In this document: positions 13,112-26,736 of the stretch, one piece after another
Layout: each line of letters starts with the position of its first letter
Numbering within the stretch: the stretch's first letter is position 1
Assembly (NCBI GenBank): GCA_016207905.1
Contig: JACQZC010000084.1
Coordinates: forward strand, 1-62,022
Source: Nitrospirota bacterium
GTDB taxonomy: Bacteria > Nitrospirota > Thermodesulfovibrionia > Thermodesulfovibrionales > JdFR-86
Direction: 5' to 3'
DNA length: 62,022 bases
The notes under the pieces: model-generated
The model's database searches: none
What the model saw: the letters and a program-made list of their open reading frames with translations, nothing else
What the model was told of the DNA's origin: nothing
Made by a program: the position numbers and the translations under genes

Positions 13112-13148
13112 GTGACAATATATGCAAATATTGTTATATTTGCATATA
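13112..13148 (+). promoter_or_regulatory. Candidate promoter (-35 gtgaca, 17-nt spacer, -10 tatatt) overlapped by a perfect 13-4-13 palindrome
   Basis: tatatgcaaatat tgtt atatttgcatata at 13119-13148, about 20 nt upstream of the DsrE start codon and covering the -10 element. Confidence 0.5.
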
Positions 13149-13166
13149 AAGCAGGAAGGAGGTCTT

Positions 13167-13523
13167 ATGGCAAAGACATTTACGATTCTCTTAGGGACAT
13201 CTCCCTATGCATCGGAAAACACACTTACTGCCTTACGCATTTCTGACTCGGCACTTAAGGGAGGTCACACAGTCAATCTTATAGCATCAGGAGACGGAGT
13301 TTACTGCTTCCTAAAGGGACAGAAGGCAAAAGGCATAAAAAATGCCTCTGAGGAGTTCTCATCGCTCATTGAAAGGGGCTTGAAAGTCTTTCTCTGAGGT
13401 GGATGCCTGAATTTTCGCCGTGCAGCGAAAGACGACTACCTCGAAGGCACAGATGTTGGCACCCTTAAAGGCTTGTTTAAGACAATGGGTGAAACGGATA
13501 CATGGCTCAACCTCACAAATTAA
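13167..13523 (+). CDS. dsrE: DsrE/TusD-like sulfur relay protein, predicted selenoprotein (TGA 13395-13397 read as Sec)
   Basis: The ORF track stops at TGA after ...GLKVFL. The same frame continues GGCLNFRRAAKDDYLEG... to TAA at 13521-13523. The U-GGCLNFRRA segment mirrors the DsrE/TusD active-site C-xxxxx-RRG. RBS ggaaggagg precedes ATG 13167. selA is in the window. Confidence 0.75.
13396..13442 (+). promoter_or_regulatory. SECIS-like hairpin immediately 3' of the in-frame UGA
   Basis: Lower stem gaggtgg (13396-13402) pairs with ctacctc (13436-13442). Upper stem tttcgc (13413-13418) pairs with gcgaaa (13425-13430). The 6-nt apical loop cgtgca contains GU. Confidence 0.55.
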
Positions 13524-13547
13524 GGGGTTAAGAGGGATGGAGGATAT

Positions 13548-13901
13548 ATGAAGAAAATCGCAATAATCTCAAGAAAACAGCCTTACGGTGACATTAATTC
13601 GGCAGAGGCAGTCAGACATGCACTTGGTGCTGTTTCAGATGAGCTTATCACCGTGCTCATAATGGTGGATGGAGGTGTGCTTCTTGCAAAGAAAACTCAG
13701 GATGTCGGAGACACAGGCTTTACAAACCTTGCCGAAACTCTAAAGGACTGCACTGATATGGGTGTTGGAGTCTATGTGGATAAGCCCTCTCTTAGGGAGC
13801 AACATCTTGAGCCAGAAGACCTTGTGGAAGGCGTAAGAATCATCAATAGCTCTGAAATAGCAGGGCTCATCAAAGAGGCAGATGTCTCTTTGATTTTCTA
13901 A
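13548..13901 (+). CDS. dsrF: DsrF/TusC-like protein
   Basis: 117 aa. DsrE/F fold-like sequence, second gene of an E-F-H triplet with an RBS. Confidence 0.65.
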   Translation: MKKIAIISRKQPYGDINSAEAVRHALGAVSDELITVLIMVDGGVLLAKKTQDVGDTGFTNLAETLKDCTDMGVGVYVDKPSLREQHLEPEDLVEGVRIINSSEIAGLIKEADVSLIF

Positions 13902-13915
13902 AATGAGGAGGTATT

Positions 13916-14191
13916 ATGCTCGTACTGATTAAAAGTGCACCAGATACAGCTGATGGCAAAAGGGCAGTCAAGCTCGCAAGGGATATGGCAGGAGACCTCG
14001 TGCTTATGCAAAATGCAGTTTATTTTGCGGAAAAAGAGCGTTTAGAGGGCTTCTGCGGAACAATATATGCTCTCGATGAGGATATATTGCTAAGGGGTAT
14101 CACAGAGACAGAAAAGGGCATAAAGACCCTAAGCTATGATGAGCTCATAGAGATAATGGCAGAAAACAATAAGGTAGTAGGCGCTTTTTAG
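13916..14191 (+). CDS. dsrH: DsrH/TusB-like protein
   Basis: 91 aa. Size, position and N-terminal MLVLIKSAP pattern are consistent with DsrH/TusB. Confidence 0.6.
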   Translation: MLVLIKSAPDTADGKRAVKLARDMAGDLVLMQNAVYFAEKERLEGFCGTIYALDEDILLRGITETEKGIKTLSYDELIEIMAENNKVVGAF

Positions 14192-14217: not shown

Positions 14218-15405
14218 ATGGCAAAAATAGTAATACTTGGAGGCTCATTTGGAGGACTTACATCCGCATATGAGCTTAAGAGGCTTCTTGGAGACAAAGC
14301 AGATATAACGGTTGTTTCGGACTCCGATAGATTCGTCTTCATACCTTCGCTTCCATGGCTCAGTTTTGGATGGCGAAAGGCAGAAGACATAACGCTTTCC
14401 ATTAAACCTATCTTAGAAAGAAAAGGCATCGCATTTATTCATGAGGAGGCAAAGGGAGTCGATGCCGACTCCTCTAAGGTTATTACTGCATCTAAAGAGC
14501 TGACCTATGACTATCTCGTTATAGCCACAGGACCTTATCTTGCCTTCGAAGAGGTTCCTGGACTTGGACCTAAAAAGGGACATACAGAGTGCATATTCAC
14601 GATCTCTCAGGCTGAAAGGGCAAAAAAGGCATGGGATAGGTTTCTTGAGGCTCCAGGGCCAATAGCAGTAGGCTCTGTTCAGGGAGTAAGCTGTTTTGGA
14701 CCTCCGTATGAATATGCTTTCGAAGCTGATGCAGAACTCAGAAAAAGAAAGCTCAGACATAAGTCACCTATATATTTCATAACCTCTGAGCCATATATCG
14801 GGCATTTCGGCATAGGAGGTTTCGGAGCATCGAAGAGCTGGCTCGAGGATGAGTTTGCGTGGAAAGACATAAGGGTGCTTTCGAATCAGGCAGTGGAAGA
14901 GTTCACACAATCAGAGGTAAGGCTAAAAGACGGAACAAAGATACCGTATAAACTCAGCATGTTTGCACCTCCCATGAAGGGTGTGCCTGCTGTAACTCAT
15001 TTAGGAAACCCCCGTGGATTTATCCCTGTTGACGATACCATGAGACACAAAACTCACAAGAACATCTTCTGTATTGGCGTTGCAGTTGCCATAGCACCTC
15101 CAGAGCCAACTCCCATCCCAACTGGTGTTCCAAAAACAGGTTACATGACAGTGAAAATGGCGCTTACTGCCGCAAAAGCCATAGCCTCTGAAATCACTGA
15201 TAAGGGCTATGTTGCCCCATACGAGATGGATGTCATATGTCTTATGGATATGGGTGAGACAGCGGCATACATGAGGGCAAAACCGCTTCTTTCGCCAAGG
15301 CAGGAGATAATACTTAAAAAAGCCAAATGGGCTAAGTGGCTAAAGGTATGGTTCGAGAAGTATTTCCTTTTCAAGATGAGACATGGCATCCCGAACTGGC
15401 CATGA
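14218..15405 (+). CDS. sqr: Sulfide:quinone oxidoreductase-like FAD-dependent disulfide oxidoreductase
   Basis: 395 aa. N-terminal FAD motif IVILGGSFGG. Conserved Cys contexts GVSCFGPPYEYA and VICLMDMG typical of SQR. Confidence 0.8.
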   Translation: MAKIVILGGSFGGLTSAYELKRLLGDKADITVVSDSDRFVFIPSLPWLSFGWRKAEDITLSIKPILERKGIAFIHEEAKGVDADSSKVITASKELTYDYLVIATGPYLAFEEVPGLGPKKGHTECIFTISQAERAKKAWDRFLEAPGPIAVGSVQGVSCFGPPYEYAFEADAELRKRKLRHKSPIYFITSEPYIGHFGIGGFGASKSWLEDEFAWKDIRVLSNQAVEEFTQSEVRLKDGTKIPYKLSMFAPPMKGVPAVTHLGNPRGFIPVDDTMRHKTHKNIFCIGVAVAIAPPEPTPIPTGVPKTGYMTVKMALTAAKAIASEITDKGYVAPYEMDVICLMDMGETAAYMRAKPLLSPRQEIILKKAKWAKWLKVWFEKYFLFKMRHGIPNWP

Positions 15406-15428: not shown

Positions 15429-15854
15429 ATGGGAGAGAAGATAAGAAAAAAAGTCTCGATAATGTGCTTTCATGACGAGCTATGCCAGGTCTTTAATGCC
15501 CTTATGACTGCATTAAGCCTTCTAAGGGAAGGCTCTGAGGTTACAATATTCTTTGGCTCAAGGGGAGTAAATGCAATCCATAAGGACAAGGTAAAAGAGC
15601 TTAAGTGTATGCCTGATGCCCCAAAAGAGGTGAGCGATAGAGTTATGAAGAAGATGGAGGAGATGGAACTGCCCTCTGTAGAGGACATGTTCATAATGCT
15701 CATAGCCGAGGGTGCAACAGTGCTTGCATGTCCCTTGAATACATCGTTGTTTGAGATGACACCTTCTGACCTTGTAGATGGCGTCAAGATTGCAGACCCT
15801 ACAAGATACTATAAAGAAGTAGTTATTCGGGCTGATATGAACTTGACCTTTTAG
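15429..15854 (+). CDS. DsrE2/DsrE-F-like family protein
   Basis: 141 aa. DsrE_2-like pattern (TIFFGSRGVNAI ... ATVLACPLN). The start may instead be Met12 at 15462. Confidence 0.6.
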   Translation: MGEKIRKKVSIMCFHDELCQVFNALMTALSLLREGSEVTIFFGSRGVNAIHKDKVKELKCMPDAPKEVSDRVMKKMEEMELPSVEDMFIMLIAEGATVLACPLNTSLFEMTPSDLVDGVKIADPTRYYKEVVIRADMNLTF

Positions 15855-15916
15855 AAGAAATATGCTAAAACCTCTTGAAAGGAGGTCTATATCTCTATAT
15901 TCTAATATTAGAAGCT

Positions 15917-16249
15917 ATGAAAAAAATGAAAAAACTCATATTCACCTATCAGGCAGACATATGCAAGACATTGGGGAATCCCAAAAGGCTTGAGATTATA
16001 GAAGCCCTCTCCAATGGGGAGCTAAATGTTACGGAACTGGCAGAGCGGCTTGGGATTCGAAAGGCAAATGCATCGCAACACCTATCTGTTTTGCGCTCAA
16101 AAGGGCTGATTATTGCACGGAGAGAAGGTCTTAACATCTACTACAGCATAGCAAACCCAAAGATAATTACGGCATGCGGGATGATGCGGGAAGTTCTTTT
16201 GGAACAGCTTGAAAAAGGGGGGAAACTGGTAAGGAGATTCCGGTCGTGA
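15917..16249 (+). CDS. ArsR/SmtB-family transcriptional regulator
   Basis: Winged HTH: LGNPKRLEIIEAL...VTELAERLGIRKANASQHLSVLRSKGLI. Two Cys (ORF positions 30 and 101). Start uncertain (TTG 15875, ATG 15917 or ATG 15926). Confidence 0.85.
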   Translation: MKKMKKLIFTYQADICKTLGNPKRLEIIEALSNGELNVTELAERLGIRKANASQHLSVLRSKGLIIARREGLNIYYSIANPKIITACGMMREVLLEQLEKGGKLVRRFRS

Positions 16250-17740: not shown

Positions 17741-20044
17741 TTGAGGAAACATTCTTTAGTTAAATTCTCTGTAGAGCATCCAAAACTAATCGTTGTCCTG
17801 ACTATCGCTATATCTTTAATCTTCATGACCCAGTTCCCGAAGATAAAGACGGATACGAACCCCAAAAACATGCTTCCTGCCACTTCAGATGTGAGGGTAT
17901 GGAATGACGGTGTAGAGAAAACCTTCGGCCTTTACGAAGACATGCTCGTACTTGGAATAGTTAACGACAAAGGTATTCTTAATAAAGGTACACTCGGAAA
18001 GATTAAAAGGCTCACCGATGAGATATTGAAAATCAAAGGTGTTGCGGCAAGGGATGTAAACAGTTTTACCACTATTACGAATGTATCAGCAGAGAAAGGG
18101 GTTTTAAGGGTAGCTCCCCTTATGACAGAGACTCCCCGAACCGACGAGGAGATACATGCCCTTAGAAAGATGCTCTACGAAAATCCACTTTTTATCAATA
18201 GGATTATCTCAGAGGACGGAAAAACCACCGCAATATATGTCCCTCTTGAGGAAGGCGCAAATGGAAAAGAAATAGCAGACAGGATAAGAGAGATAGTAAA
18301 GAAACAAGAGGGGGACGAAAAATACTATGTTGCAGGGGACCCTGTTTCAAGAGACACATTCGGAGCAGAGATGTTCAAGCTCATGGCTATCTTTGCACCA
18401 ATTGCTGGAATGGTCATGCTTTTTGTCAGGTATCTCATGTTTAGGGACCTATTTCTTTCCATCACCCTGATGATGGATGCCATGGTGAGCATCGTCTGGA
18501 GCATGGGACTTCTTATTGGACTTGGATTTCCAATTCATATTATGAGCTCCATGGCACCTGTATTCCTGATGGCAATAGCTACGGACAGCATGCACATATT
18601 TAACGAGTTTTACTTCCGCTTCAGAGAGACAAGAAACAAAAAAACCGCAATAATTGAGACAATGCAAGCAGTAGGTCGGCCTGTAAGATACACTGCCCTC
18701 GCAACTGCAGTAGGCTTTGCTGTCTTGATGTTCATGCACATCATTCCTGTTAAGGTCTTTGGCGGGCTTGTGGCATTTGGAACAATAGTTTTAAGGCTCT
18801 TGAGCTTCAGCTTCATACCTGCCATGTTTACCTTTGTTAAAGAAGAAAAGATTGCTAAAATCTCTCATGCAGAAGACATCGGCATAAGCAAGGGCTCACA
18901 GTTTCTGAGAAAACTTGCTGGATTCGGCACGCATAAGCCAAAGATGACTGTTACTATCGGTCTTTTGCTTTTTGTAACTGCAATCTTCGGCATAACGAAA
19001 ACAGTTGTCAATAACAATATGGTGGAGTGGTTCAAGAAGGATTCTGAGGTGCGCACTGCCGATAGGGTTATGAATCAGGCACTCGGAGGGACATCCCTCG
19101 GTTATGTTGTTGCAATCTCAGAGAAAGACGACTATATCAAAACCCCTGAGGCAATGCGTTACATAGAAAACCTTCAGAGGCATCTTGAAAAACTCCATGT
19201 TGTTGGAAAGACGACCTCTGTTTCAGATTATGTTAAACGAATCAACCGTGTCCTTCATGACGACGACCCGAGATACGACACCGTTCCTGAGACAAAAGAG
19301 ACGATTGGCCAGTATCTATTCCTATTTTCGATGTCTGCAAAGCCCTCTGATCTGGATAATGTTGTAGACTATCCATTTCAGAAGGCAAATATATGGGTTC
19401 AGCTCAAGACATGGGATGCTCAGGCAATGAGGGATGTGATAAAGGCAGTAGAAGAATACAAAAAGTCGCATCCTGTCATTATGGAATTTAAGCCTTCAGG
19501 CATCGCCTATTTCAATCTCGTATGGAACAATGCGGTTCTTTTTGACATGCTCAAGGGCTTCATCATTGCACTTATTGTAGTTTTTGTCATCCTTGCCTTT
19601 AACTTCCGTTCGATAAAATGGGCGATTGTTGGCTACATGCCACTTCTTTTTACAATCCTTCTTATATATGGAGTTGTCGGCTTTATCGGTAAAGACTTTG
19701 ACATGCCTATCTCTGTATTAAGCTGTCTATCGCTTGGCATGGCAGTGGACTTCGCTATACATTTTGTAAGCAGGCTCAGGCAGAGGCTGAATGAGGCATC
19801 AGGGGAATCTCTGAGCGATGCACTTCTTTGGACTGCCGCACGACCGGGCAAGGGGATTATGAGGAATGCTATTCTTTTTGCCGCCTCATTCGCTGTGATG
19901 CTTTTTGCCCCTCTTACGCCTTATATCACAGTAGGGGCATTCATCGTAAGTATGATGCTCTTCAGTGCATTAATGACGATAATCTATCTGCCAGCCCTGA
20001 TTACATTGATGCAGAGTTGGCTTTTTAAAGGAGGTCTAAGATGA
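17741..20044 (+). CDS. MMPL/RND-superfamily exporter
   Basis: 767 aa. Two bundles of about six TM helices separated by soluble loops, typical MMPL/HpnN-like architecture. TTG start. Confidence 0.8.
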   Translation: MRKHSLVKFSVEHPKLIVVLTIAISLIFMTQFPKIKTDTNPKNMLPATSDVRVWNDGVEKTFGLYEDMLVLGIVNDKGILNKGTLGKIKRLTDEILKIKGVAARDVNSFTTITNVSAEKGVLRVAPLMTETPRTDEEIHALRKMLYENPLFINRIISEDGKTTAIYVPLEEGANGKEIADRIREIVKKQEGDEKYYVAGDPVSRDTFGAEMFKLMAIFAPIAGMVMLFVRYLMFRDLFLSITLMMDAMVSIVWSMGLLIGLGFPIHIMSSMAPVFLMAIATDSMHIFNEFYFRFRETRNKKTAIIETMQAVGRPVRYTALATAVGFAVLMFMHIIPVKVFGGLVAFGTIVLRLLSFSFIPAMFTFVKEEKIAKISHAEDIGISKGSQFLRKLAGFGTHKPKMTVTIGLLLFVTAIFGITKTVVNNNMVEWFKKDSEVRTADRVMNQALGGTSLGYVVAISEKDDYIKTPEAMRYIENLQRHLEKLHVVGKTTSVSDYVKRINRVLHDDDPRYDTVPETKETIGQYLFLFSMSAKPSDLDNVVDYPFQKANIWVQLKTWDAQAMRDVIKAVEEYKKSHPVIMEFKPSGIAYFNLVWNNAVLFDMLKGFIIALIVVFVILAFNFRSIKWAIVGYMPLLFTILLIYGVVGFIGKDFDMPISVLSCLSLGMAVDFAIHFVSRLRQRLNEASGESLSDALLWTAARPGKGIMRNAILFAASFAVMLFAPLTPYITVGAFIVSMMLFSALMTIIYLPALITLMQSWLFKGGLR

Positions 20045-20838
20045 GAATCTTTTCATCGGTAATAGCGGTATTGGCAGTTCTATTCATATCTTCCAGTTCA
20101 TTTGCCCTAAGCGCCGAAGAGATGATGAAAAAATCTCAGGCTGCATTCCTATATGCAGGGAAGGATTTCAAGGCTCGTGTGATGATGAAGCTCATAAGTA
20201 AAGGTGGTCAGGAAAGGACAAGGGAACTCACGATGCTCAGGAAAAACTACGGAGAGCCAGGCGAAGAGCAGAAATATTTCATGTACTTTTTTCAGCCTGC
20301 TGATGTCAAAGACATGACATTCATGGTCTACAAATATCCAAAGAAAGACGATGACAGGTGGCTTTTTGTGCCTTCGATTAATATGGTAAGAAGAATAGCC
20401 GCACAGGACAAACTCTCAAGCTTTGTGGGCTCTGACTTTACATACGAGGATATCTCAGGAAGGGATATAGAGGACGATACTCATGCACTTGTAAAGGAAG
20501 AAAAGCTTGGTGACAAGAACTGTTATGTAATAAAGAGCACTCCTAAGACTGCTGATGTGGATTATAGCTATAAGCTCTCATGGGTTGACAAGGCAAGCTA
20601 CCTTCCTGTCAAGGAAGAATATTATGACAGAAAAGGAGAACTTTACAAGGTCTTCACTGCTGATGAGATAAAGGATATAAAGGGATTCCCAACGGTCACA
20701 AAAAGGACGATGAAGAACCTTCAGAGCGGACATACGACGACGGTCGCTTATTTGAAGGTGGACTATGACATTGGCATCGAGGACAGCCTTTTTTCGGAGA
20801 GATACCTGAGAAAGCCTCCTAAGAAATGGATTGAATGA
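20041..20838 (+). CDS. Outer-membrane lipoprotein-sorting (LolA-like) protein
   Basis: 265 aa with a signal peptide. 4-nt overlap with the MMPL gene. The family commonly partners MMPL transporters. Confidence 0.6.
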   Translation: MRIFSSVIAVLAVLFISSSSFALSAEEMMKKSQAAFLYAGKDFKARVMMKLISKGGQERTRELTMLRKNYGEPGEEQKYFMYFFQPADVKDMTFMVYKYPKKDDDRWLFVPSINMVRRIAAQDKLSSFVGSDFTYEDISGRDIEDDTHALVKEEKLGDKNCYVIKSTPKTADVDYSYKLSWVDKASYLPVKEEYYDRKGELYKVFTADEIKDIKGFPTVTKRTMKNLQSGHTTTVAYLKVDYDIGIEDSLFSERYLRKPPKKWIE

Positions 20839-25338: not shown

Positions 25339-26736
25339 ATGGCTAAGAAAGAAGCCCTAAAAAAACTTCCTTCTGTTGATGAGGTATTAAAAAGCCCCTA
25401 TGGCGAGAAGTGGCTTAAGGCTTATCCGAGAAGGTTTGTCCTTGAATCGGTAAGAGAGCTCATCGACAGAAAAAGAAGGCTTATCCTTTCAGGCGAGACA
25501 GTCTCATCCTTAGATATGGAGACACTATCGCCTGAAATAAATTCCCTTATAGAGCAGTTATCCTCTTACAGCCTTATGCCCCTTATCAATGCAACAGGCA
25601 TAGTCATACACACTAATTTAGGCAGGGCTATACTTTCTAAAAGTTCAATCCAGCATATTTTGGAAACTGCCTCAAGGTATTCAAACCTCGAATATGAGCT
25701 TAAAACAGGCAGTAGGGGAAAACGCTATAGCCACATAAAAAGACTTTTAAGAGACACAACTGGCGCAGAAGACGGAATTGTAGTAAACAACAATGCAGGC
25801 GCAGTTCTCGTTTGCCTTTCAAGCCTTGCAAAGGGTAAAGAGGTGATAGTCTCAAGAGGCGAGCTTGTGGAAATCGGAGGCTCCTTTAGAATCCCCGATG
25901 TCATGCAGGCAAGTAGTGCAGTCTTAAAGGAAGTAGGAACAACAAACAAAACCCATCTTTACGATTATGAAAATGCAGTAGGCAAAGACACAGCCCTCAT
26001 ACTCAAGGTGCATCAGTCAAACTATAGGATAACGGGCTTTACAGAGGATGTGCCCATAGAGGCACTTTCCCTGCTTGGGAAGAAACATGGATTACCTGTG
26101 ATGTATGACATGGGAAGCGGATGTCTCATCGATTTAACGCCATACGGAATACAAGGAGAGCCGATTGTGGCAGATGCATTGTCAAAGGGTGCAGACATTG
26201 TGACATTTAGCGGAGATAAACTCCTCGGTGGGCCACAGGCAGGCATTATCGTTGGCAAGAAGGACTACATAGCGAGGATAGAGAAGAACCCACTTCTGAG
26301 GGCACTGAGAATAGACAAGCTTACTCTTTCTGCGCTTGAGGCAACGCTCATGGAATATATGGATGAGGATAAGGCAAAAAGGAACATCCCGTGCCTGAGG
26401 ATGCTGATTGAGCCTCCTTCCTCCATAAAGGAAAGGGCAAAAAAGGTTTCAGGAATGCTCAAAAGATATATAAAGGATGCGGATATAGATGTCATGGAGG
26501 ACTTCTCGCAAGCAGGCGGAGGTGCACTTCCCGAGGTTAATCTTAAGACATATGTGGTCTCGATAAGCACGAGAGTCCTTACACCAAACAAATTAGAAGA
26601 AAGACTAAGAAAATGTAATCCGCCTGTTATAGGAAGAATCAAGGAGAATGCACTTTTGCTCGATATGAGGACTGTAAATGGCTCTGAGATAAAACCACTC
26701 ATCAGCTCTCTAAGGACTGCCTTGAGCCAAAGCTAA
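25339..26736 (+). CDS. selA: L-seryl-tRNA(Sec) selenium transferase
   Basis: 465 aa. Collinear with E. coli SelA: INATGIVIHTNLGRA, VVNNNAGAVL, VSRGELVEIGGSFRIPDV, FSGDKLLGGPQAGIIVGKK. Confidence 0.95.
   Translation: MAKKEALKKLPSVDEVLKSPYGEKWLKAYPRRFVLESVRELIDRKRRLILSGETVSSLDMETLSPEINSLIEQLSSYSLMPLINATGIVIHTNLGRAILSKSSIQHILETASRYSNLEYELKTGSRGKRYSHIKRLLRDTTGAEDGIVVNNNAGAVLVCLSSLAKGKEVIVSRGELVEIGGSFRIPDVMQASSAVLKEVGTTNKTHLYDYENAVGKDTALILKVHQSNYRITGFTEDVPIEALSLLGKKHGLPVMYDMGSGCLIDLTPYGIQGEPIVADALSKGADIVTFSGDKLLGGPQAGIIVGKKDYIARIEKNPLLRALRIDKLTLSALEATLMEYMDEDKAKRNIPCLRMLIEPPSSIKERAKKVSGMLKRYIKDADIDVMEDFSQAGGGALPEVNLKTYVVSISTRVLTPNKLEERLRKCNPPVIGRIKENALLLDMRTVNGSEIKPLISSLRTALSQS

Follow-up and report, generated by a model that had tools for sequence, protein, structure and literature searches.

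The window analysed here, that is, the whole 62,022-nucleotide stretch of Nitrospirota DNA, carries a dsrE-like gene with an in-frame TGA, followed by dsrF- and dsrH-like genes and by a gene for a sulfide:quinone oxidoreductase (SQR). The features on which this analysis rests are the following.

13112-13140, plus strand: promoter-like site GTGACA-17-TATATT, overlapped by the palindrome at 13120-13147
13120-13147, plus strand: perfect 12-4-12 palindrome ATATGCAAATAT-TGTT-ATATTTGCATAT, a candidate operator that overlaps the promoter-like -10 region
13167-13523, plus strand: dsrE(Sec) coding sequence, DsrE/YchN-like, 118 aa, with a predicted selenocysteine (Sec) at residue 77 in U-G-G-C
13395-13397, plus strand: in-frame UGA, predicted Sec codon U77, from its conservation, its Cys homologues and its alignment with the Cys78 column
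13413-13430, plus strand: SECIS-like upper stem-loop (UUUCGC / CGUGCA / GCGAAA), with a two-tier extension at 13395-13443 in the window
13548-13901, plus strand: DsrF/TusC-like gene (PF02635, E 6.7e-15; TIGR03010, 40.6 bits against a cutoff of 94.15)
13916-14191, plus strand: DsrH/TusB-like gene (PF04077, E 8e-10; TIGR03011, 45.4 bits against a cutoff of 49.2)
14218-15405, plus strand: SQR, with the Aquifex and Acidithiobacillus enzymes as its nearest PDB relatives (3hyv, E 4e-97)
15429-15854, plus strand: DsrE2-like, sulfur-carrier-like gene (PF13686), found at the same position in about 17 relatives
15875-16249, plus strand: ArsR/SmtB-family regulator (PF01022, E 2.5e-14), putatively regulating the cluster
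25339-26736, plus strand: selA, L-seryl-tRNA(Sec) selenium transferase (TIGR00474, 615.3 bits against a cutoff of 267.9, positions 1-454 of 455)

The dsrE-like reading frame continues through a TGA codon

The initial annotation had noticed that the open reading frame of the ORF track closes at TGA 13395-13397 and that the same frame stays open for 41 further codons, giving a protein of 118 aa. The sequence bears this out: beyond the TGA the frame runs to a TAA stop at 13521-13523, and the readthrough product reads ...GLKVFL-U-GGCLNFRRAAKDDYLEGTDVGTLKGLFKTMGETDTWLNLTN. The coding sequence starts at ATG 13167, which is preceded by GGAAGGAGG at 13154-13162. The start that the ORF track places at 13122 is probably wrong, as judged from the alignment of orthologues, in which the ATG equivalent to 13167 is the start in 46 of the 47 sequences covering that codon. 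The Pfam DsrE model (PF02635, 116 positions) matched residues 4-114 of the product with an E-value of 1.8e-16 and 60.8 bits against a cutoff of 22.7, and the match therefore spans the TGA.

Because TGA is the terminator of 24 of the 44 long ORFs in the window, a reassigned genetic code is excluded and the code is standard. A scan of the window for other genes with an in-frame TGA returned none that was convincing. The stretch containing the TGA was identical in contigs from four groundwater metagenome runs; these belong to one study and are probably the source samples, so that they rule out a one-off assembly slip and do not count as independent biology.

The TGA and the frame behind it are conserved in Thermodesulfovibrionia

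A scan with one genome per species yielded 51 related loci, all from Nitrospirota/Thermodesulfovibrionia metagenome-assembled genomes (MAGs), at 66-78% amino acid identity. Results showed that TGA is kept at the position of the Sec codon in all 51 and is never replaced by TAA or TAG. The orthologues do not terminate there without a conserved frame behind it: the downstream sequence GGC[LMV]N[FY]RRA...W[LI]N is conserved in 50 of the 51, with a stop 40-42 codons on. The mean pairwise divergence at codon positions 1, 2 and 3 was 0.18, 0.13 and 0.59 upstream of the TGA and 0.17, 0.08 and 0.51 downstream of it, and synonymous sites in the alignment of the relatives were saturated on both sides. 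Conservation of the downstream frame in the face of saturated synonymous sites indicates that the 41 downstream codons are translated and are under purifying selection. Within the clade the U77-G-G-C80 motif is invariant, including the second cysteine, C80.

The sole loss of the downstream frame among the 51 was seen in a groundwater Nitrospirae MAG (L051:4446-4480), where a deletion or frameshift lies right behind the TGA; the gene is either a true pseudogene or misassembled. A further peculiarity concerns codon 76 (13392-13394), the Leu codon just before the UGA: 41 of 50 sequences use CTC, and the entropy of 0.85 compares with about 2.2 at other Leu codons. This preference may reflect an influence of codon context on the decoding of Sec.

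Two more distant Sec-type relatives (L057/L058 and L059), entered as truncated proteins of 75-76 aa, also have a TGA at the same column, and their frames continue after the TGA as GTCFSFRGL... or GSCLRFRGI.... Since the TGA of L057 and L059 occupies the same column, Sec forms occur in several clades. These two loci (L057:2004-2360 and L059:682-1035) share some 35-47% identity, carry U-GTC and U-GSC, have a hairpin of their own and are followed by F/H-like genes.

The UGA occupies the active-site cysteine column of the DsrE/YchN fold

Cysteine at the homologous column is the classic partner of selenocysteine. An exhaustive HMMER search recovered full-length relatives, 116-122 aa long and at most 51% identical: the U77 column holds Cys in 24 of 25 aligned full-length homologues, mostly as CxxC, and Ser in the remaining one (P0132). 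Cys homologues at the UGA column, for which the initial annotation had called, are thus present. When the profile of the homologue alignment was compared with PDB sequences, the best match was YchN (1jx7, 80 bits, E 1e-21), followed by DsrE (2hy5_A, 53 bits) and TusD (2d1p_A, 41 bits). Counted on the printed profile alignments, the U77 column corresponds to Cys78 of both DsrE (2hy5_A) and TusD (2d1p_A), as the placement of the UGA at the catalytic Cys had supposed, and to the first Cys of the CKTC motif of YchN. Cys78 of DsrE is described as the sulfur-binding residue (Stockdreher et al. 2012, as cited in PMC13047784). The C-x5-RRG pattern that had been proposed for this site stood only in part: the arginine is indeed found downstream, and the exact spacing is not as given. 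U-x6-R is the actual motif and corresponds to C78-x6-R85 in DsrE, and the RR pair is shifted by one residue relative to the RRG of DsrE.

An AlphaFold (AF2) model of the 118-aa product had a pLDDT of 91.8 and a pTM of 0.86. In the model, strand 73-77 ends at U77 and helix 78-83 begins after it, which places U77 at a strand-to-helix junction. Two of the five core strands, along with two helices, come from the C-terminal 41 residues; a 76-aa product would thus be an incomplete fold. Foldseek matched the model to YchN, DsrF and DsrE with TM scores of 0.82-0.86, the value of 0.86 being reached with YchN and DsrE.

A SECIS-like hairpin lies directly downstream of the UGA

The minimum free energy fold of 13395-13445 comprises a lower stem (13395-13402 with 13436-13443) and an upper stem (13414-13418 with 13425-13429), to which the centroid fold adds the pair 13413:13430; the loop is CGUGCA. 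The folding energy was -15.6 kcal/mol (z = -2.1) and was equalled by 4 of 200 shuffled sequences. The two-tier hairpin at the UGA described in the initial annotation is therefore reproduced by the fold of the window, as is its GU in the apical loop, whereas the 7-bp lower stem turned out to be specific to the window and is interrupted in relatives, one pair being unpaired in 47 of 51. The GU-containing apical loop lies 24-29 nt past the U of the UGA, a distance that fits bSECISearch-type rules.

The upper stem UUUCGC/GCGAAA and a CGUGCN loop are conserved across the 51 relatives. Pairing was kept in 86.5% of cells for the upper helix and in 83.8% for the whole two-helix structure, compared with 46-57% for slid controls. 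Because the NFRRAAK peptide encoded here is itself conserved, which confounds conservation of the stem, we examined the synonymous sites. The codon for Arg84 was CGC in 51 of 51 sequences (H = 0), that for Arg85 was CGT in 45 of 50 (H = 0.54) and that for Ala87 was GCG in 47 of 47 (H = 0). At Arg24, by comparison, five different codons are used, and entropies of 1.5-2.0 bits are typical of the other Arg and Ala codons. No further codons of the gene are synonymously frozen, the remaining degenerate ones being saturated. The frozen codons 84, 85 and 87 coincide exactly with the core of the stem and the G-U of the loop, a pattern in the alignment that argues for a constraint at the RNA level on top of the protein constraint at these codons.

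Neither RNAalifold nor pair counting found compensatory covariation in the hairpin among the 51 sequences, and the consensus predicted only a 3-bp CGC/GCG core. A search of 13300-13600 against Rfam matched no family, and permissive E-values gave noise only. The candidate thus resembles bacterial SECIS elements (the E. coli fdhF type and the bSECISearch model) in starting within about 20 nt of the UGA and in lying inside the coding region, and departs from these models in its lack of covariation within the clade, its unconserved lower stem and the missing Rfam match. In the distant Sec forms L057 and L059, a strong hairpin lies equally far from the UGA, and both its sequence and the residues encoded there differ. 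Hairpins also folded in all three Cys-form genes examined, in which the stretch is GC-rich, and use of the hairpin to discriminate Sec from Cys forms was dropped for that reason.

The window contains an intact selA

The initial annotation had placed selA about 12 kb away, and we found it intact at 11.9 kb from dsrE(Sec), identified by TIGR00474. selA is not known to have a role beyond the synthesis of Sec-tRNA. Genes for selB, selC and selD were absent from the window, and neither ARAGORN nor Rfam detected a tRNA-Sec in it; none was found in the 51 related loci either. According to PMC13188914, selC may lie inside selB in Nitrospirae.

dsrE(Sec) heads a conserved cluster with dsrF, dsrH and SQR

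As had been noted from the sequence, the gene heads a DsrE/F/H-like triplet adjoining SQR, and this arrangement is syntenic across the relatives: the order dsrE(U)-dsrF-dsrH-SQR is kept in nearly all of them, with the DsrF/TusC-like gene in place in 51 of 51 loci, the DsrH-like gene in 49 of 51 and SQR in most. The DsrF-like protein has no Cys at the active-site column, where it reads ...VYVDKPSLRE.... The best PDB match of the DsrH-like protein was TM0979, and its first Cys is residue 47, the first 46 residues having none. In the SQR, the GVSCFGP motif and the C-terminal Cys motifs align with those of 3hyv. The best NCBIfam match of this SQR was NF049943 (type III SQR, selenoprotein subtype), and SQR as a second selenoprotein was considered and rejected: the score was 113 bits against a cutoff of 525, and the Cys residues are present.

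No terminator-like sites were found on the plus strand between the genes of the cluster, which is consistent with a single operon. Downstream of the DsrE2-like gene and the ArsR-family regulator, the neighbours include a double rhodanese gene. In relatives the cluster often continues with a DsrE2-like gene, an ArsR regulator, an HAE3/MMPL transporter and a 265-aa protein, and an ArsR homologue lies near the cluster in many of them, either upstream or downstream. In the window, the HAE3/MMPL-type RND transporter and the 265-aa protein, which has no NCBIfam match, occupy 17741-20838; the pair trails the sulfur cluster in most relatives.

The palindrome in front of dsrE(Sec) is unique in the window, where none is expected by chance. 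Several contigs from the four metagenome runs break at it or share just some 30 nt of it, with different flanks. The breaks and the shared stretch with differing flanks suggest that the palindrome recurs in the genome or the community, and it seems to be either the operator of a regulon or a REP-like repeat.

An equivalent operon of E-F-H genes and a flavoprotein gene accompanies the Cys-form relative P0124. At this locus (L054:3610-8523) the order is ArsR-rhodanese fusion, methyltransferase, DsrE(Cys), DsrF-like, DsrH-like, methyltransferase and SQR/FCSD-like flavoprotein. The two SAM methyltransferases beside the Cys-form dsrE are a separate observation on this cluster.

Relation to known DsrE-type proteins

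A selenoprotein family called "DsrE-like protein" (PF02635, UxxC) was predicted in Desulfovibrio vulgaris and in the Sargasso Sea metagenome (PMC1794560; Zhang, Fomenko and Gladyshev 2005, PMC1088965), and reviews of 2022 and 2026 list it with WP_014524487.1 as representative and as functionally uncharacterised (PMC9312934, PMC13188914). The earlier remark that DsrE-like selenoproteins had already been reported thus agrees with the literature, in which the prediction dates from 2004/2005 (PMC1088965, PMC1794560). Since the UxxC family has been listed from that time, the kind of protein is known, and what is new is the member and its clade. By domain and motif, dsrE(Sec) belongs with this family: it shares PF02635, a UxxC motif with Sec in first position, Cys homologues and a SECIS-type hairpin right after the UGA. 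Unlike the published members, it represents a Nitrospirota/Thermodesulfovibrionia clade that is apparently Sec-only and in which the gene heads a dsrEFH-like and SQR operon. Our literature search found no published description of a large Thermodesulfovibrionia Sec clade with such an operon.

DsrEFH and TusBCD are alpha2-beta2-gamma2 heterohexamers that transfer sulfur to DsrC or TusE. The triplet in the window is similar to them in its three-gene E-F-H order, in its fold (TM 0.83-0.86), in the alignment of U77 with Cys78 and in an F subunit that lacks that Cys. It differs in having Sec instead of Cys, in an extra Cys that creates the UxxC motif, and in its linkage to SQR and not to dsrAB/dsrC or tRNA thiolation genes. 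All three proteins failed the NCBIfam equivalog test, with 16.9 bits against 89.25 for TIGR03012 (TusD), 40.6 against 94.15 for TIGR03010 (TusC) and 45.4 against 49.2 for TIGR03011 (TusB). As for DsrH, Cys20 is the conserved residue of the A. vinosum protein; the DsrH-like protein here, whose first Cys comes at residue 47, was aligned to TM0979 only. Given the sub-cutoff scores and the absence of an early Cys in DsrH, the triplet should not be filed as canonical DsrEFH. E. coli YchN (PDB 1JX7) is the best match in both sequence and fold (TM 0.86), with CxxC over UxxC; it is, however, a stand-alone homohexamer that uses Cys, whereas dsrE(Sec) uses Sec and always has F- and H-type genes behind it.

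A probable selenoprotein in a putative sulfur relay

The best explanation of these data, to which we assign a probability of roughly 0.88, is that 13167-13523 encodes a 118-aa protein of the DsrE/YchN fold whose reactive residue is a Sec in U-G-G-C at the position of DsrE/TusD Cys78. Read from sequence comparisons, the in-frame "stop" at 13395-13397 is almost certainly an active-site selenocysteine codon.

With the established bacterial pathway as a model, a ribosome arriving at UGA 13395-13397 would meet the hairpin directly downstream, whose core spans 13413-13430. Serving as a bacterial SECIS, the hairpin would recruit SelB-GTP-Sec-tRNA(Sec), the tRNA(Sec) having been charged via SelA, whose gene lies 12 kb away. 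Sec would then be inserted and translation would proceed through the 41 remaining codons, adding two of the five core beta-strands. The product may form the E subunit of a DsrEFH/TusBCD-like complex with the products of the next two genes. In this complex the Sec77 selenolate could accept sulfane sulfur from the probably co-transcribed SQR to form an Se-S adduct, and the sulfur might subsequently be passed to, or resolved by, Cys80 or partners such as the DsrE2-like protein, the rhodanese or DsrC. The insertion of Sec, the heteromeric complex and the flow of sulfur from SQR are all steps that we infer, and the proposed functional link between dsrE(Sec) and SQR is drawn from synteny.

The E-F-H arrangement, the Cys-less F and the neighbouring genes point to a DsrEFH/TusBCD-like relay coupled to SQR, while the invariant UxxC and the closeness to YchN would also suit a selenol/thiol redox role, for instance the resolution of an Se-S adduct via Cys80. 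The protein could accordingly be a genuine selenoprotein and yet act as a UxxC selenol/thiol oxidoreductase nearer to YchN, for example one that reduces persulfides or polysulfides through an Se-S bond with Cys80, instead of serving as a relay subunit that delivers sulfur to DsrC/TusA-type partners. YchN comes out first in both sequence and fold, with U-G-G-C aligned over C-K-T-C, C80 is invariant in the clade, and the family was classed as having a UxxC redox motif in selenoproteome surveys (PMC1088965). The scores of the subunits below the TusBCD/DsrEFH equivalog cutoffs and the lack of a Cys in the first 46 residues of the DsrH-like protein agree with such a role. It accounts less well for the E-F-H order with a Cys-less F, which is the hallmark of the DsrEFH/TusBCD relay, for the coincidence of the U77 column with the persulfide-carrying Cys78, and for neighbours that are sulfur carriers (the DsrE2-like protein and the rhodanese). 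We regard a purely oxidoreductive function as rather unlikely; the oxidoreductase and relay roles are in any case not mutually exclusive.

Readthrough of the UGA without Sec, by a near-cognate tRNA (Trp or Cys) or under a reassigned code, is very improbable. It would suit the absence of tRNA-Sec from the window, but it conflicts with the standard code, in which TGA closes 24 of the 44 long ORFs, with the intact selA, with Cys at the homologous column and with a hairpin that has frozen synonymous sites at SECIS distance. Least probable of all is that the TGA is a genuine stop producing a 76-aa truncated DsrE fragment, with the 41 downstream codons a decaying or separately translated remnant of a pseudogene or split gene: every gene caller closes the ORF at the TGA, none of the 120 homologues listed is full length and a separate 38-aa ORF from Met81 is called in some relatives (P0140, P0218), yet purifying selection acts on the downstream frame in 50 of 51 species, third positions being saturated, no downstream start codon or RBS is conserved (residue 81 is L, M or V), two core strands and two helices of the AF2 model would be missing from a product of 76 aa, and the codon is specifically TGA, never TAA or TAG, in all 51.

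To return to the selenoprotein reading, a DsrE-type carrier encoded next to SQR and bearing a selenolate where the persulfide is carried would make the use of selenium in sulfur trafficking open to experiment. We tentatively propose a wider reading, which is possible but less than even in our estimate: the supposedly missing dsrE of Thermodesulfovibrionia, most of which have DsrAB of the reductive type, would be this selenoprotein, part of a selenium-dependent DsrEFH-like relay hard-wired to SQR, with Sec77 as the direct acceptor of sulfane sulfur. If this were true, selenium supply would gate sulfide oxidation, detoxification or sulfur disproportionation in subsurface Nitrospirota.

Truncated database entries and the reported absence of dsrE

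The dsrEFH genes serve as a marker for telling sulfur oxidisers and sulfate reducers apart. In a survey of Nitrospirota from aquifers, published in 2024, most Thermodesulfovibrionia with reductive dsrAB were reported to have dsrFH and to lack dsrE (PMC11033732). The reported absence is probably a result of truncation at the Sec UGA, and metabolic inference is affected accordingly, as the dsrE gap in Thermodesulfovibrionia likely arises at this codon. Nearly all of the 120 database homologues listed are 76 aa long and the rest are 77-90 aa; every listed homologue closer than about 65% identity is cut at about 76 aa. No NCBIfam model recognises the dsrE(Sec) product, and there is none to rescue the fragments; the clade is systematically mis-annotated. 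Where residue 81 of a relative is Met (P0140 and P0218), the part behind the UGA is annotated as a separate 38-aa protein, and the selenoprotein consequently stands in the databases as two unrelated small ORFs.
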